Origin: Fidelibacterota bacterium
GTDB lineage: Bacteria > Fidelibacterota > Marinisomatia > Marinisomatales > JABMOV01
Direction: 5' to 3'
DNA: 15,932 bases
Assembly (NCBI GenBank): GCA_046861395.1
Contig: JBHHUC010000052.1
Span: forward strand, 1 to 15,932
Shown: piece after piece, positions 2,458 to 15,624 of the stretch
How positions within the stretch are numbered: the stretch's first letter is position 1
Layout: each line of letters opens with the position of its first letter
Position numbers and translations under genes: made by a program
The notes under the pieces: model-generated
Told to the model about the DNA's origin: nothing
The model's input: the letters and a program-made list of their open reading frames with translations, nothing else
Databases searched by the model: none

Positions 2458-2970
2458 TCAGTGTAATATAAACTGGTTCTTGAAATCCTTTACCAAATCG
2501 GCGCCATGAGTAGTAACATCAACCTTATCATAAATTTTAAACACTACGCCATTCCGGTTAATGAGAAATGTTTTCCTACTGGGAAACATGAATCCCTTTG
2601 TCCCGTAAAGTGTTGAGACCGATTTATCCGTATCACTGAGTAAGACAAACGGCAGATGATGATCTGCAATGAATTTGGCGTGCGATTCCGGTGTATCATA
2701 ATTAATGCCCAGCACGACCACACCGGAGTCCGTCAATACGCTGTAATTATCCCGTATACTACAGGCTTCCTTGATTCAGCCGGGGGTCCCGTCCTTGGGA
2801 TAGAAATATACAATAATAAACCGACCGGCATAGTCCGACAAAGAACGGAATACACTGTCCTGGTCCATCAGCCTGAAGTCGGGAGCCTTATCACCGATCT
2901 GGATATCGCCATCTCTGCCCCACAGAAATGAGAGAAGGCCCATCATCATAATTGCAATTGTTGTTTTCAT
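2458..2970 (-). CDS. bcp: Exported BCP/PrxQ-family peroxiredoxin, probable selenoprotein (UGA = Sec, codon 65), 170 aa
   Basis: ORFs 2776..2970 and 2458..2736 share one frame and join as GDKAPDF...VYFYPKDGTPG-U-IKEACSIRD...VLGIN.D...H.KF...LPF.LLSD...RKTFLI. TGA (2776-2778) sits at the peroxidatic Cys position. Confidence 0.9.
2741..2765 (-). promoter_or_regulatory. Candidate bacterial SECIS hairpin
   Basis: Starting 10 nt after the UGA: stem CCUGUA/UACGGG with a GUA apical loop. An alternative fold is CUGUAGU/AUUACAG. Folded by eye. Confidence 0.55.
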
Positions 2971-4025
2971 TCTGATTCTTCCCGTTGGATATAAACAAAA
3001 AACCCTTTCCCGAATGAGCTGGAAAACATTCCATAGCCACCTTCAATATTGGAATCGGGAAGAACCCATTGATTCAGTCCCATGGGATCGCCGCTGAAAT
3101 ACTGAAAAAAGGCATCATCCGTGGCCTGAAGAAAAACAATATGCAGACCATAATAATTAAAATTCAACCAACCCATTTGCGTGGGAGAAACATCGATATT
3201 CCAGACAAACGGGTTGTACCGGTAAGGATTATTGTCTTCGTCTCGTAAATAACTTCCCTTCCATAATTGAAAGACCTTGGTCGTATCATAGATGAGATTC
3301 ACAAAGGTCGAATCCCGGACTTCATTGCGGTTATAATCGGTAAACGGTTCGCCGGAGTCATAGCGGCCGTTCCCGTTTTCATCGCTAAATGGTTCCAGGT
3401 CCTTTTTATCCGCTTCCAGAGCATAAGTAATGGTTTGGATTGTTCCAACCGAGTCGGCGGGAAATTCGAGCAAAAAATAGGGTATGGAAACAAAACTCTG
3501 GGTATAGCAATCCCCGGTTCGGTAGACGACAGTATCAATTGGCCCGGTGGGACGAAGAGTCATCATATCCATATTGTCCACATGAATGCCCGGTACAATC
3601 ACTTCTTCCCCATCGCAGGTAAATACGGAACTGTCTGGACTGGTAATGTCCATGGTCCGGGGTACGGTGGTTTCGGCCCATACCGTATCGCCCTGCCAGC
3701 TGACTTCCAGCCGATAGGTTGTTTGCGGCTGAATAATGATTGAAGGATCGAGGATGTACTGACCGTGCTTCCCCGGGACCGGCCAGGCCCGATAGGACGT
3801 ATCGGCAGTATGAATGAAAACCACTGCGCTGTCGATATAGAGGTCATTGCTGGATACCGCTTCGACCAAGGCGGCTGAACGAGAAACATAAATGGGATTG
3901 ATCATGGGTAAATTGGCCACTAGATGGGCAAAAACAATCAAGCGTTCCTCATAATGTGCTTCTTGGTCCTGAAACGTGCATCCCAGCAAGAATAAAATCA
4001 GAATAATTGTCATTGATTTCTTCAT
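2967..4025 (-). CDS. Lipoprotein partner of the TonB-dependent receptor (DUF4249-like) with an Asp-rich Ca-binding insert
   Basis: Lipobox LLGC, TYRLEV..AETTVP and C-terminal SNIEGGYGMF motifs. ATGA overlaps with both neighbours. Confidence 0.8.
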   Translation of the reverse strand: MKKSMTIILILFLLGCTFQDQEAHYEERLIVFAHLVANLPMINPIYVSRSAALVEAVSSNDLYIDSAVVFIHTADTSYRAWPVPGKHGQYILDPSIIIQPQTTYRLEVSWQGDTVWAETTVPRTMDITSPDSSVFTCDGEEVIVPGIHVDNMDMMTLRPTGPIDTVVYRTGDCYTQSFVSIPYFLLEFPADSVGTIQTITYALEADKKDLEPFSDENGNGRYDSGEPFTDYNRNEVRDSTFVNLIYDTTKVFQLWKGSYLRDEDNNPYRYNPFVWNIDVSPTQMGWLNFNYYGLHIVFLQATDDAFFQYFSGDPMGLNQWVLPDSNIEGGYGMFSSSFGKGFFVYIQREESE

Positions 4026-6334
4026 AAATCGACCGCAATTCCAATTGAAGGAATGAGAGGAAAGATACTTACATCTTCGCGGCGGATGCGACCCTCATCC
4101 TCCTCATCCACATGGGGTTCGCCTACATCGGGAACGCCATTATTATTCAGGTCATCCTTTTCCGCCACCCAGTCGCCGTCATCGTCCAGTCCGTTTTCCG
4201 TACTGCCAATCAAATATACATAACGGAATATATTCTTCCTGTTATAGGCATTGATCATCTGGAGACTAATATCCACCATCTTCCCTTTGACACGAAAACG
4301 GCGCAGCAGGCTTACATCCAACCGATGATACGGAGGATATCGACCGCCATTTCTTGTACCGGGGATGGTCCGAAACCGGGGCGTGGGATCGGCTGGTAAA
4401 TTCTCAACATAGTACCCGAGAATCGGAGTATAGGCCTGACCCGATTGCCAGGTCCATTTTCCATTAAATTCCCAATGTTTGCGGAATCGCCAGGTACCCA
4501 CCAGGTTCAGGGCATGCCGGCGATCCCAATTGGTGAAATATTCCTCTCCCTTGAATTGTTTTCGGGAGATCGACCAGGTGTAGGCCAGCCATCCCGTGAG
4601 GGCGCCACCGGATTTTTGCAGAAATGTTTCAAAGCCGTATGCATATCCATCTCCCGGAATGAAAATATCGCTGAGTTTTTCATCCGAAACTTCGGCGTCC
4701 GAAGTAGCCCTTCTTTCTTCATAGGTCAACATGTTCTGAATGGTTTTGGCATAGGTCTCAACCTGAAAATGCCAGCGATCGGAAACAAACTGTTCATAGC
4801 CGAAAACAATTTGCTGGGAAGAGGCGGGATCCACTGACCGGTCCACTGCCAACCAGTTATCCAGTATCGTCGGATTGAAATCGTCCTGTACCGTCTCGAT
4901 GAATTGGTGATAATTGCCAATGGCGAAATTCAGAAACCGGTCCGTATCCACAATGAATTTCATCCCGAAACGGAGGTCCGGATAAAGGGTGCGGGAATGG
5001 TTGTTATAATAATTTAACCGAAATCCCGGTTCCAGGACAAACTGGGCCACCGGAGTCCATTTCACCTTGATAAACGTCGCTGCCTCCACCGGGGAAACAT
5101 GAATATTAAATAAGAGTGAATCGTTAAAATGGCTATTATAGGTAAAGGCTAGATTTTTCATCTGGGTACCGAACGTCATGGTGATATCCTGACTGTAGAA
5201 ATAGGTAAACCGGATACTGTTCGTCCGGTCCAGAATCAGATTGGTACTTTTGATTCCCGATCCGCCCCCCAGTCCAAAGGCAGTGGAAAATTCACTGCTG
5301 GCGGTTAATATATTGGCCAGCAAACGATCGGTGAATACTTTACGATATGCCAGGCTGTAGGTCTTATTCCCCCAATTGGCGGCCAGTCCCAAATCGTTGA
5401 ATACCAGATCATCCAAACCGGTGTAAAGACTGAAACTGATGCGGTCCTGAGGTGTCAGGTCAGTGAAAACATGACCCTGAATATCATAAAAATAATATGG
5501 AATAAAATATTTCGTTCCTTTCAACACTTTATCAAAATATGTTCGGCGGGTGGAGACCAACCAGGCACCGTTGTAAAAGGGCCCTTCCATCGTTGTTTGC
5601 GCCGCCAGCAGAGAAACAGCGGCCTTGGCATCGATCCGGTTCCGGTTACCTTCCCGGCTGATAATATTAAGGACGGCCGACAGACGTCCGCCATATTCGG
5701 CATTATATCCACCCTTTATGAGTTCCGCTTCCTTTACCGCATCGATGAGAAAGTTACTGAACACACCACCCAAATGGGACGGATTGTATACGGTAATACC
5801 ATCCAGCAGAATGAGATTCTGATCGGTATTCCCACCGCGAATGATCAATCCCGTCGAAAATTCCGATGGTGTGAGGACGCCGGGCAGGGATTGGATGGTT
5901 CGGAATAAATCCGGTTCCACTATGGACGGTAGGGATTTCATATCGCGAGGCTTAAGATTGATCCGACTGGGTTCAACCACCTTCTGTCGGGATATCTGTT
6001 CCCCGCTGACAGTGACTTCATTTAATTCAATTAATTCGCGCTCCAGGGCAATATCTATCTTCACCGATTCCCGGTCCAGTATAACCGGTTTTTCATACCG
6101 TTGATAACCTAAATAAGACGCCACCAATTGATGGGTTCCGGCCGGGATGCCATTGATCACATAATAGCCGTTATGATCCGTCGCCGTACCCCAGGCCGTA
6201 CCATGGATATACACATTGGCGCCAATCAGTGCCTCACCGGTTTCCCGGTCTGTGACGAACCCGGTGATCCGGCCGGCCAGAACCGTAGTTATCAGCAAAA
6301 TATGCAGCAGGATAAACAATGATATCCGGTTCAA
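4022..6334 (-). CDS. TonB-dependent receptor (CarboxypepD_reg-like N domain, plug, beta-barrel)
   Basis: ITGFVTDRETGEALIGANV, plug LPGV..IRGG..QNLILLDG..YNP.HLGG.FS, YHRLD and NAYNRKN. The likely start is TTG6334 (AGGAGG 6 nt upstream, signal peptide follows) rather than 6427. Confidence 0.92.
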   Translation of the reverse strand: MNRISLFILLHILLITTVLAGRITGFVTDRETGEALIGANVYIHGTAWGTATDHNGYYVINGIPAGTHQLVASYLGYQRYEKPVILDRESVKIDIALERELIELNEVTVSGEQISRQKVVEPSRINLKPRDMKSLPSIVEPDLFRTIQSLPGVLTPSEFSTGLIIRGGNTDQNLILLDGITVYNPSHLGGVFSNFLIDAVKEAELIKGGYNAEYGGRLSAVLNIISREGNRNRIDAKAAVSLLAAQTTMEGPFYNGAWLVSTRRTYFDKVLKGTKYFIPYYFYDIQGHVFTDLTPQDRISFSLYTGLDDLVFNDLGLAANWGNKTYSLAYRKVFTDRLLANILTASSEFSTAFGLGGGSGIKSTNLILDRTNSIRFTYFYSQDITMTFGTQMKNLAFTYNSHFNDSLLFNIHVSPVEAATFIKVKWTPVAQFVLEPGFRLNYYNNHSRTLYPDLRFGMKFIVDTDRFLNFAIGNYHQFIETVQDDFNPTILDNWLAVDRSVDPASSQQIVFGYEQFVSDRWHFQVETYAKTIQNMLTYEERRATSDAEVSDEKLSDIFIPGDGYAYGFETFLQKSGGALTGWLAYTWSISRKQFKGEEYFTNWDRRHALNLVGTWRFRKHWEFNGKWTWQSGQAYTPILGYYVENLPADPTPRFRTIPGTRNGGRYPPYHRLDVSLLRRFRVKGKMVDISLQMINAYNRKNIFRYVYLIGSTENGLDDDGDWVAEKDDLNNNGVPDVGEPHVDEEDEGRIRREDVSIFPLIPSIGIAVDL

Positions 6335-6414
6335 TGGATGCCTCCTGCTGGTGTCCGTGTTCTGGTGAAGAGTCAAGAGATGCCCGGGGGTCGTGGGTCG
6401 GGTGAAAACATATT

Positions 6415-7326
6415 TCATTTCAACCATGATAATTGACTAGCAGTGAATCTCTTCGGGTTTATTCCCCATTCGGTCCAAGGTTTTTCTTCAGCGCAATCAT
6501 TACCGGCAACCAGCATAGTAAGCTGGTCCCGGGTAATAGGAAACCAGGCAAACCGATCCAGGAGGGCCAGAACCGGAAATAATAATGCAACGGGAACGGG
6601 GACAAACCATTTCTTGCGACCGCATGCCGCAGCGATCCGGGTCACCATTTCACGCCAGGTCAGGGAATCCGGTCCGCCAACCGGCAGGGTTTGACGGGAA
6701 AATTCTTCCAGTCGGTCAATGACATGTCCTACCAACTCAGCGACATCAGAAACATGGACCGGTGACAGGCGAAATTGGCCGGCCCGAGTAATCTGCCAGC
6801 CTGAAAAAAACAGTGGGACAGGTATCCTGGGCTTTATCATTTGCCGGGCTAGGGTCATCGTCAATTCCTTCCGACCGTTGGCAGGTCCGAATATAAGCGA
6901 AGGCCGGAGAATGGTCCAGGGAATGTCATAGGATTTGAGAATTGATTCTCCTTCCAGTTTTGTCCGTTGATAGGGCGTTCGGGCCCGATCAATACCCCAA
7001 GCACTGATCAGAATAACATGACGCACGTTTTTTACTGCGGCACGGGCCAGAATGTCCGCCAGAAGCGAAACATGGGCCCTTTCAAACGTGATACCGCGAC
7101 GGGAAAAAGCACGTATGATTCCGATGCAATATATCAATACGTCTGCCCGGTTCAGAGCCAAATCAATTTTATTTATATCATCCAATTGACCGGTTATCTG
7201 TTCATAGTCGGAGCTGTCAGGAGTTGGCCGACGGGTAAAAAGTGTCAGGTTGTGCCCCCGATGTGTCAAGGAGCGTGCTAGGTGGGAGCCGACAAATCCC
7301 GTACCGCCAAAAAGTGTAATATTCAC
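6415..7326 (-). CDS. NAD(P)-binding atypical SDR, complex I NDUFA9-like / NAD-dependent epimerase family
   Basis: Motifs GGTGFVG, YQRTK, WTILRPSLIFG, PVHVSDVA and GGPD.LTW. Confidence 0.88.
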   Translation of the reverse strand: MNITLFGGTGFVGSHLARSLTHRGHNLTLFTRRPTPDSSDYEQITGQLDDINKIDLALNRADVLIYCIGIIRAFSRRGITFERAHVSLLADILARAAVKNVRHVILISAWGIDRARTPYQRTKLEGESILKSYDIPWTILRPSLIFGPANGRKELTMTLARQMIKPRIPVPLFFSGWQITRAGQFRLSPVHVSDVAELVGHVIDRLEEFSRQTLPVGGPDSLTWREMVTRIAAACGRKKWFVPVPVALLFPVLALLDRFAWFPITRDQLTMLVAGNDCAEEKPWTEWGINPKRFTASQLSWLK

Positions 7327-14229: not shown

Positions 14230-15624
14230 TTAATATTCATTTAAGGTTGACGCCACAACTTCATAATGAAAACCGGCAAAATAATAGAACGGCACTTCAT
14301 GATGAAGATTCAAATAGCCGGTGGGGAATTTGTTCCCCGGATTATCCACATGATGAACATAAAGGGCCCCTTCAAAAGAGGAATTATTGTTGTTAAATAC
14401 GAACGTATTGGCAGAATAAATCACGCCATGAGCTGACCCATCCAGTTTGATATAGGAAGGACTGATAATCTGCCCCCAGACATCGGCTCCGGAATTGATG
14501 GTAATCTGGTCATTGGAGTAAATGAGATTCACCGTGCTGGGCCAACTGGCAGGATTGAGGGATGAATAGTCGTTTCCATACTGCCCGTCATTTTTAATCA
14601 CGATATCACTATCGCCAATCAGGATGATGTTATCACCTACCACGGTAGGTGAAAAGCCCAACGATTCCAGTGACACTTTACCGGTTACAACCAGAAAACC
14701 AGGTTGAACGAAAGATCCACCCGAAACCGTAACCCCTTTCAGGGTCAATTTCCCTTTTACGTACAACGTGCTGTTGTCATATTGCGATAAATCCAGAGTC
14801 CCTCCGGATATGGTCCAGTCACCTTTATGTTTATTACCCCCGGTCTGCTGGATGGCATAGGCTACATTCAGACGGGTGGTATACGGTGTGATATCCAGTT
14901 GCGGAATAACCCGTGGTGTCGTGGCCTGCCAGCTGAAGTACTGGTCAAAGGAACCTGATACCGTGTAACCGGCAGGGACATACAGTAAGGTCGGTACTCC
15001 CGGTGGGTCCCCCATACTGGCATTATTTTTCACCGATACATTTCCGCCAATGTAGAGGTTATAATTCATCTTGAAATTATTTTGAATATCAAATGTATTG
15101 GACATGCCACCATCATCACCGTGATCATCACCGTGATCGTCGCCATGGTCGTCTCCGTCATCGTCGCCATGATCATCCCCATCGCCGGATGAAGCACTCA
15201 ATGTTTGTACTACACTCAAACCAGGCCAGAAATTCTGTTCCGCCTGGGAATCGAATAACACTTCCAAACGCTTTTTGGTATTCCCGTGTGTTCCGATGGA
15301 AATCAAACGAACGTAGCCATCCGGCAAAGCACTGCCATCATCATAGGTATTGCTGGTAAACAAGGTAACATTGCCGTTGAAAAAGGAGTAGGTCCCGGTA
15401 ATATTTTCAAAATCGTCGGCATTTTCAATGGCATATTCTATTCCCGATAAAGCGGCCCAGTAAGATTGGCTGCCGGAATAGGTATTCGCCGCAATATTGA
15501 TTGTTGTGGATTGGGATTTACTCAGATATATAATGGCCACAGCCAGAACAATGGCCACCACAAAGGCAATGGATGCAAAAATATATCCGTCTTCCCTCTT
15601 CTGTTTCAGCAAATATTTTTTCAT
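14230..15624 (-). CDS. PilX-like minor pilin with a large beta-rich C-terminal domain
   Basis: Basic leader ending KREDG|YIFAS, then a hydrophobic helix lacking Glu5, SYWAALSGIEYA and ISIG..G..KKRLEV. The C-terminus is beta-solenoid-like. Confidence 0.75.
   Translation of the reverse strand: MKKYLLKQKREDGYIFASIAFVVAIVLAVAIIYLSKSQSTTINIAANTYSGSQSYWAALSGIEYAIENADDFENITGTYSFFNGNVTLFTSNTYDDGSALPDGYVRLISIGTHGNTKKRLEVLFDSQAEQNFWPGLSVVQTLSASSGDGDDHGDDDGDDHGDDHGDDHGDDGGMSNTFDIQNNFKMNYNLYIGGNVSVKNNASMGDPPGVPTLLYVPAGYTVSGSFDQYFSWQATTPRVIPQLDITPYTTRLNVAYAIQQTGGNKHKGDWTISGGTLDLSQYDNSTLYVKGKLTLKGVTVSGGSFVQPGFLVVTGKVSLESLGFSPTVVGDNIILIGDSDIVIKNDGQYGNDYSSLNPASWPSTVNLIYSNDQITINSGADVWGQIISPSYIKLDGSAHGVIYSANTFVFNNNNSSFEGALYVHHVDNPGNKFPTGYLNLHHEVPFYYFAGFHYEVVASTLNEY
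15109..15180 (-). repeat. Coding tandem repeat (GDDx)6
   Basis: GDDH GDDD GDDH GDDH GDDH GDDG, with a 12-nt period and varied synonymous codons. Confidence 0.9.

Follow-up and report, generated by a model that had tools for sequence, protein, structure and literature searches.

In a window of 15,932 nucleotides (the whole stretch of DNA analyzed here, from a Fidelibacterota bacterium), we identify a BCP/PrxQ peroxiredoxin gene on the minus strand (2458..2970) that is interrupted by a single in-frame TGA at the position of its peroxidatic residue. We conclude that this is a real and intact selenoprotein gene that has been mis-called, and that its TGA is very probably read as selenocysteine (Sec). 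The product is probably an exported Sec-PrxQ that acts like the periplasmic peroxiredoxin PprX of Caulobacter but with selenium, a reading for which we infer the read-through, the export, the chemistry and the redox partner.

Translated from 2970 to 2458, the frame gives 170 codons, counting U65, followed by a terminal TGA (2460-2458), and its only internal stop is codon 65 (2776..2778, minus strand), in the context YFYPKDGTPG(TGA)IKEACSIRD. The ORF lister breaks this frame into pieces of 64 and 92 amino acids, and the 64-residue fragment exists as a called gene in the public protein collection. A preliminary description of this DNA had joined the two pieces into one gene with UGA in place of the peroxidatic Cys, a second Cys five residues later, an intact conserved Arg and no other lesion, and each of these points stood up to closer analysis. 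The active-site motif P58-x-x-x-T62-x-x-U65 (P58-KDG-T62-PG-U65; 2776..2799, minus strand), together with the homologue alignment, places the TGA at the peroxidatic column. Five residues past it, Cys70 (2761..2763, minus strand) is the sole Cys of the protein, lies in a column that is nearly invariant across 120 aligned sequences and is likely the resolving Cys of an alpha2-type (UxxxxC) enzyme. The conserved catalytic Arg132 of the SRKTF segment (2575..2577, minus strand) is invariant in 120/120 aligned sequences, and the frame is otherwise intact.

On read-through, PF00578 aligns with residues 25-143 of the product (E 1.5e-34), a span that includes the TGA. Its best NCBIfam models are PrxQ (NF053650; 113.9 bits, cut-off 260) and Bcp (NF006960; 113 bits, cut-off 140), and the PrxU model NF040737, which has a length of 233, reaches 52.1 bits (cut-off 270); because all of these scores fall short of the curated cut-offs, we do not file the protein under any of the three. 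Among solved structures, the best phmmer relative is Sulfolobus Bcp1 (3drn; E 4.5e-35), and the top matches are Bcp/PrxQ proteins. An AlphaFold model computed with Cys substituted for Sec and a 120-row alignment reaches a mean pLDDT of 90.4 (about 48 for residues 1-20), places both residue 65 and residue 70 within helix 63-74 and again has 3drn as its best Foldseek match (E 5.5e-19, TM 0.77/0.87). Sequence and fold therefore agree on the PrxQ membership proposed at the outset, and the assignment to the BCP/PrxQ peroxiredoxins is supported by the motif, the Arg and the short Prx fold, with peroxidase activity as the predicted function. Bcp1 of Sulfolobus solfataricus and E. coli Bcp (NF006960) likewise have the peroxidatic residue and a second Cys in one helix, but both are Cys enzymes of the cytoplasm and lack a signal segment. 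An experimentally shown Sec-peroxiredoxin, PrxU of Eubacterium acidaminophilum (NF040737), resembles the predicted protein in that its peroxidatic residue, within a Prx fold, is Sec, although it belongs to a different subfamily model and is an AhpC-type cytoplasmic enzyme.

Homologue matches were present in all 61 genomes searched, and TGA occupies the peroxidatic column in 7 of the best 30 loci, the present gene among them, with TGC or TGT in the other 23. We enlarged this set with the next 12 loci by rank, 8 hand-picked lower ones, 80 named loci and the genome's own paralogue, for a total of 131, or 126 distinct genes once 5 duplicates are removed. These comprise 29 TGA genes and 97 Cys genes, proportions that reflect in part the patterns used to fetch the 80 named loci, which were biased to the Cys form. 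The named loci closest to the gene belong to Ca. Neomarinimicrobiota / Fidelibacterota. In a quick tree of all 126 rows, the 42 signal-bearing rows of the order form a clade (SH-aLRT 96) in which 18 orthologues have TGA and 24 have TGC or TGT, bearing out the Cys/UGA alternation that had been anticipated among homologues. No U or X residue occurs in the 120 listed protein homologues, which come from a length-limited search of called proteins; as such a search would miss truncated Sec genes, this absence says nothing about the frequency of Sec. One ENA protein of the same clade (P0120) has Trp at the peroxidatic position, presumably because its TGA was translated with the wrong code.

The N-terminal signal-like segment of the preliminary description is also present as a hydrophobic stretch. 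We predict a signal peptide at residues 1-18 (2917..2970, minus strand), probably cleaved after LWG. The ATG start codon shares bases with the stop codon of the upstream DUF4249 gene (ATGA), and no in-frame ATG, GTG or TTG lies between residue 10 and the start of the domain. A hydrophobic extension is found in 42/42 clade members (with a 10-residue mean hydropathy of at least 2.0 in 40 of them) and in 98/120 listed protein homologues; because Cys orthologues carry it too, it is a feature of the clade and is not tied to Sec. A crude scan of the genome returned 202 signal-like N-termini, several of them ending in LFG or LWG as here. Judged from its sequence, the enzyme probably reaches the periplasm.

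The alternative that survives best accepts a real Sec-PrxQ but takes the N-terminus to be an uncleaved anchor or to go unused, so that the enzyme would be membrane-tethered or cytoplasmic and recycled by an ordinary thioredoxin. We consider this unlikely, although it has some evidence on its side. In E. coli, export can suffer when a mature domain opens with basic residues, and here the residue following the proposed cleavage site is Arg; it is atypical for the genome, where the residue after the signal-like stretch is Gln in 56/202 cases and Lys or Arg in 7/202, whereas Lys or Arg is frequent there in this PrxQ family (22/69). Against an anchor, the stretch is only about 13-15 residues long and has the L-W-G end seen in the genome's signal-like termini; the genome already encodes a separate, signal-less Sec-BCP (on contig C33); and the conserved neighbors of the gene encode envelope proteins.

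These neighbors begin immediately upstream with a DUF4249 lipoprotein-like gene (PF14054; 2967..4025, minus strand), which is likely in the same operon as prxQ. Next to it is a TonB-dependent receptor gene with CarboxypepD_reg-like and Plug domains (4022..6427, minus strand), a conserved neighbor of prxQ in relatives. A receptor homologue lies within 1.5 kb of prxQ in 21/29 relatives' loci, always on the same strand, upstream of prxQ in this taxonomic family and downstream elsewhere, and 17 of those 21 are at least 46% identical, as compared with 26-41% for the genome's own receptor paralogues. The receptor and DUF4249 pair (2967-6427, minus strand) is conserved next to prxQ across the order, and by eye both members contain Asp/Gly-rich repeats resembling calcium-binding loops. 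Downstream, a 142-residue ORF on the plus strand (2020-2448) converges on prxQ across a 9-nt gap; it has a hydrophobic segment at its N-terminus, contains a single CxxCH motif, gave no Pfam or NCBIfam match and no homologue in loci L010-L118, and is possibly a small c-type cytochrome. Candidate redox partners are encoded on contig C35, where a DsbD-family gene (619 aa) and a TlpA/ResA-like lipoprotein gene are adjacent; both are unlinked to prxQ and score under NCBIfam cut-offs.

We envision a catalytic route in five steps. SelB, acting on a hairpin 16 nt downstream, would deliver Sec-tRNA at codon 65, and the 18-residue N-terminus would direct export and be cleaved after LWG. By homology, the selenolate of Sec65 would be positioned by Pro58, Thr62 and Arg132 and attack H2O2 or an organic peroxide. 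As alpha2-type PrxQ suggest, Cys70, which shares its helix, would then resolve the selenenic acid to form an intramolecular selenenylsulfide. A periplasmic TlpA-type thioredoxin fed by the DsbD-family protein could then re-reduce the enzyme, as in the ScsB-TlpA-PprX system of Caulobacter. The most far-reaching reading would be of a periplasmic selenium peroxidase that is the Sec counterpart of PprX, is recycled through DsbD and TlpA, is co-expressed with the TonB receptor and the DUF4249 protein whose transport it serves or protects, has gained or lost Sec more than once and carries its SECIS over the codon of the resolving Cys; as a complete package, this is speculative and less likely than not.

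A different chemistry is conceivable for an exported enzyme of this kind: as a '1-Sec' enzyme, it would have its selenenic acid resolved by a thiol from another molecule, and Cys70 would be conserved in part because folding or the RNA stem requires it. The codon of Cys70 does sit in the 5' arm of the putative SECIS, and in the Sec-BCPs of Binatia the +5 Cys codon has become an Arg codon in 6/7, strengthening the stem (U-G to C-G). As the genome's own cytoplasmic Sec-BCP also lacks the +5 Cys, a Sec-PrxQ can evidently be encoded without it, and in a published account of the subfamily about a third of PrxQ have no resolving Cys, with an alpha2 resolving Cys in about 60% (PMC4749874). Yet the Cys is kept at +5 in 18/18 of the TGA genes with a signal segment, even though a change there is compatible with the stem, and it is present in 95/97 Cys genes, a count that includes 80 loci fetched via patterns, one of which contains this Cys. 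We therefore regard the one-Sec chemistry as improbable and retain Cys70 as the likely resolving residue.

The hairpin itself is a likely bacterial SECIS upper stem of 6 bp with the loop GUA (2751..2765, minus strand; loop 2759-2757), and it begins 10 nt past the UGA, with a spacing of 16 nt from UGA to loop. The preliminary description had placed it correctly, G-first loop included, and had judged it to fit bacterial SECIS elements; that judgment holds for the geometry, whereas the energy limit is not clearly reached. The consensus given in the Figure 2 legend of one review calls for a loop of 3-9 nt, an upper stem of 4-16 bp, a G at loop position 1-2, a distance of 16-37 nt from the UGA and a minimum free energy of -7.5 kcal/mol or lower (PMC13188914). 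The hairpin falls within three of the four constraints of this consensus, those on geometry (3-nt loop GUA, 6 bp, 16 nt), and its energy in 30-40 nt is -5.7 kcal/mol; windows of 50 nt and 60 nt give -7.4 and -9.9 kcal/mol, but via other folds. Folding energy is unremarkable at 36 nt (z -0.88) and 49 nt (z -0.52), and the stem has a pair probability of about 0.6 in a 40-nt window and of 0.05-0.09 in 60- and 100-nt windows. Because the folding z-scores are not significant, we used comparative evidence for the SECIS.

For this comparison, we defined the hairpin as a stem of at least 6 bp (at least 5 bp when scoring genes) with a G-started triloop at +17/+18 after the TGA, a rule that was fixed once this gene, paralogues from the genome and the first few orthologues had been inspected, and that was applied to related rows; we therefore attach no weight to its p-value. 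At 6 bp or more, such a hairpin follows 172 of the 93,254 TGA triplets of the genome (0.18%) and 5 of the 674 TGAs that close ORFs of at least 200 aa, a background that, given how the rule was fixed, is not a blind test. Across the 126 distinct genes, a hairpin of at least 5 bp is present in 24/29 TGA genes versus 3/97 Cys genes, and within the 42-row clade in 17/18 versus 0/24; among relatives, then, it tracks TGA at the peroxidatic column. Four of the five TGA genes without it are cytoplasmic Sec-BCPs that, by eye, show the same geometry with one mismatch. A 6-7-bp version occurs in 4/7 other selenoprotein candidates of the genome, which were found without the rule; these four are selD and three Prx-like genes, and the cytoplasmic BCP, SelW-like and thioredoxin-like genes are without it. 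In 11 same-register sequences every stem cell pairs (all 54 in the 9 distinct ones, as against 11-72% in slid controls). Covariation consists of a single double-sided pair change (U-A to C-G, in 3 rows) that is common to related sequences, accompanied by a one-sided change (U-G to C-G) in 4; 4 of 500 shuffles reach as much. Seven Ca. Binatia loci (L066, L069, L078, L080, L082, L090 and L093; position 3118-3156) encode signal-less Sec-BCPs with the hairpin in the same register.

The distribution of TGA among orthologues also bears on the simplest dismissal of the gene, namely that the TGA is a nonsense mutation or a sequencing error in what was a Cys PrxQ and is now a pseudogene. A single base change turns TGC or TGT into TGA, and the closest set of the same family has a Cys gene (G002), but 17 further orthologues with the signal segment also have TGA in this column, 16 of them with the hairpin, and the gene has no second lesion. 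In a comparison of assembled contigs, those of 4/4 runs span the TGA stretch with 0 differing letters and 0 gaps, so that codon 65 is TGA and not TGC or TGT in each; this agreement is not independent, as a single hydrothermal-vent sample, possibly the source itself, yielded all four runs. No RNA run figured among the 7 runs listed. A pseudogene is thus largely refuted and very improbable.

Reading the TGA as Sec presupposes the corresponding machinery, and selA, selB, selD and tRNA-Sec (selC) were all found in this genome (G000), which is 94% complete. The selA gene scores over its cut-off at 525.7 bits; selB is split, with an N-terminal part (over cut-off) that runs off the end of contig C75 beside selA and a C-terminal part that opens contig C58; selD is over its cut-off and has an in-frame TGA of its own; and tRNA-Sec scores 67.5 bits against a gathering score of 47. 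An alternative genetic code, in which TGA is read generally as Trp or Gly and codon 65 is not Sec, can be dismissed despite the Trp in P0120 (presumably an annotation choice), as TGA otherwise acts as an ordinary stop that closes 415 of the 1,099 ORFs of at least 300 aa and this gene also, the sole tRNA with a UCA anticodon found by ARAGORN at default settings is tRNA-Sec, and Trp or Gly would abolish the catalytic residue.

Among relatives, selA is over its cut-off in 53/60 genomes, including all 17 with a TGA orthologue. It is equally over its cut-off in 22/23 searched genomes with the Cys form, so possession of the Sec machinery does not force the use of Sec here. Two genomes, G046 (81% complete) and G056 (92%), have no selA over the cut-off yet have TGA-containing matches among those listed, which is most simply explained by assembly gaps.

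The history of Sec in the exported lineage was examined with a 49-row tree from which one long-branched locus (L141) was left out, and for which the Sec column was removed along with the next 9 residues. The tree needs 3 Sec/Cys changes (bootstrap 2-4) and a single Sec origin has a p-AU of 0.036 under LG+G4, but its starred branches force only 1 change, so that Sec may have changed once or several times, and in either direction. In the Cys orthologue of the same family (L012, genome G002), the hairpin loop and most bases of the 3' side are identical and the stem is broken, and judging from these bases it could represent either a Sec-to-Cys reversion or a precursor state. Signal-bearing Cys PrxQ of Methylophaga-like bacteria, Methylophilaceae and other Pseudomonadota (L047, L050, L051, L057, L072, L077, L099 and L107) form a group of their own (SH-aLRT 99) and are further PprX-like enzymes.

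Sec-peroxiredoxins as such are well established, as the preliminary description had stated: published lists of selenoprotein families include a 'Peroxiredoxin (Prx)' family of the COG1225 (Bcp)/PF00578 type with a TxxU motif (PMC9312934, PMC13188914, PMC1794560, PMC5029168), and metagenomic surveys count 43 Prx genes in the Sargasso Sea (PMC1088965) and 253 in GOS (PMC2398784). The gene described here resembles this family in its PxxxTxxU motif, its BCP-type domain and a likely SECIS located within the reading frame. The supplements of the GOS survey contain close variants of its active site in Dataset S1 (PGUIKEAC 5 times, PGUTKEAC 12, PGUTKQAC 12 and PGUIKQAC 10), and several of the 'Peroxiredoxin' sequences there with TPGUIKEAC or TPGUIKQAC have signal-like N-termini, some ending in LFG; exported-looking Sec-PrxQ sequences have therefore been public since 2008. 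The main texts of the GOS and Sargasso papers contain no occurrence of 'signal peptide' and appear not to remark on location, recycling route or linkage to a TonB receptor.

The closest counterpart in likely mode of action is PprX (CC1673) of Caulobacter crescentus, a periplasmic BCP/PrxQ that is reduced by TlpA via ScsB (PMC3322552). As published, it shares with our candidate the BCP/PrxQ type, an N-terminal signal extension of about 20 residues, a PxxxTxxC-type site and the Arg, and the DsbD-family and TlpA-like pair encoded here recalls its ScsB-TlpA route, in a comparison of the presence of genes alone. It differs in using Cys for catalysis and in having a resolving Cys far along the sequence, whereas here the catalytic residue is likely Sec and the second Cys lies at +5. 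Because its only Cys is at +5 and not distant, we describe the gene as likely PprX-like in its working and do not file it as PprX.

In kind, then, the enzyme is not novel, as Sec-PrxQ from marine DNA have been catalogued since 2005-2008 and an exported Cys PrxQ has been characterized in PprX. We found no described periplasmic Sec-peroxiredoxin and no Marinimicrobia selenoproteome in the open-access literature searched, and just two features appear unremarked there, the likely location in the periplasm and the linkage to the receptor. If export is real, the gene would provide a selenium version of a periplasmic peroxiredoxin pathway that we found described only for Cys enzymes. One family moreover holds a natural Sec/Cys pair (TGA in G003 and Cys in G002, at 54-59% identity to the protein here), which lets one ask what Sec buys in an oxidizing compartment, and the likely SECIS stem over the codon of the resolving Cys offers a modest case in which the same bases are constrained both as RNA and as protein. 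Since gene calling truncates the protein to 64 aa and P0120 is stored with Trp, counts of the antioxidant enzymes of these bacteria come out too low.

Beyond the gene itself, the genome holds at least 8 further candidates with an in-frame TGA at a redox motif, several of which look exported (C70:20688(-), C33:6643(+), C1:8132(+), C1:9725(+), C65:4390(+), C76:2256(-), C8:17610(-) and C121:6682(+)). They include SelD, a cytoplasmic BCP without the resolving Cys and three Prx-like proteins with a UxxC motif, each of which has a signal-like N-terminus and is extended at length at the C-terminus; the remaining three, named from their motifs, are presumably SelW-like, thioredoxin-like and AhpD-like. 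A coding-score census of in-frame TGAs returned 11 cases at a strict setting, mostly adjacent genes in one frame, and 91 at a loose setting, mostly noise, so the list of selenoproteins is a lower bound. Elsewhere in the window, a 464-residue ORF (14230-15624, minus strand) without a Pfam match has, by eye, a pilin-like hydrophobic N-terminus and an internal Asp/His/Gly repeat, and a tRNA-Asp(GTC) gene is located at 502-576 on the plus strand.
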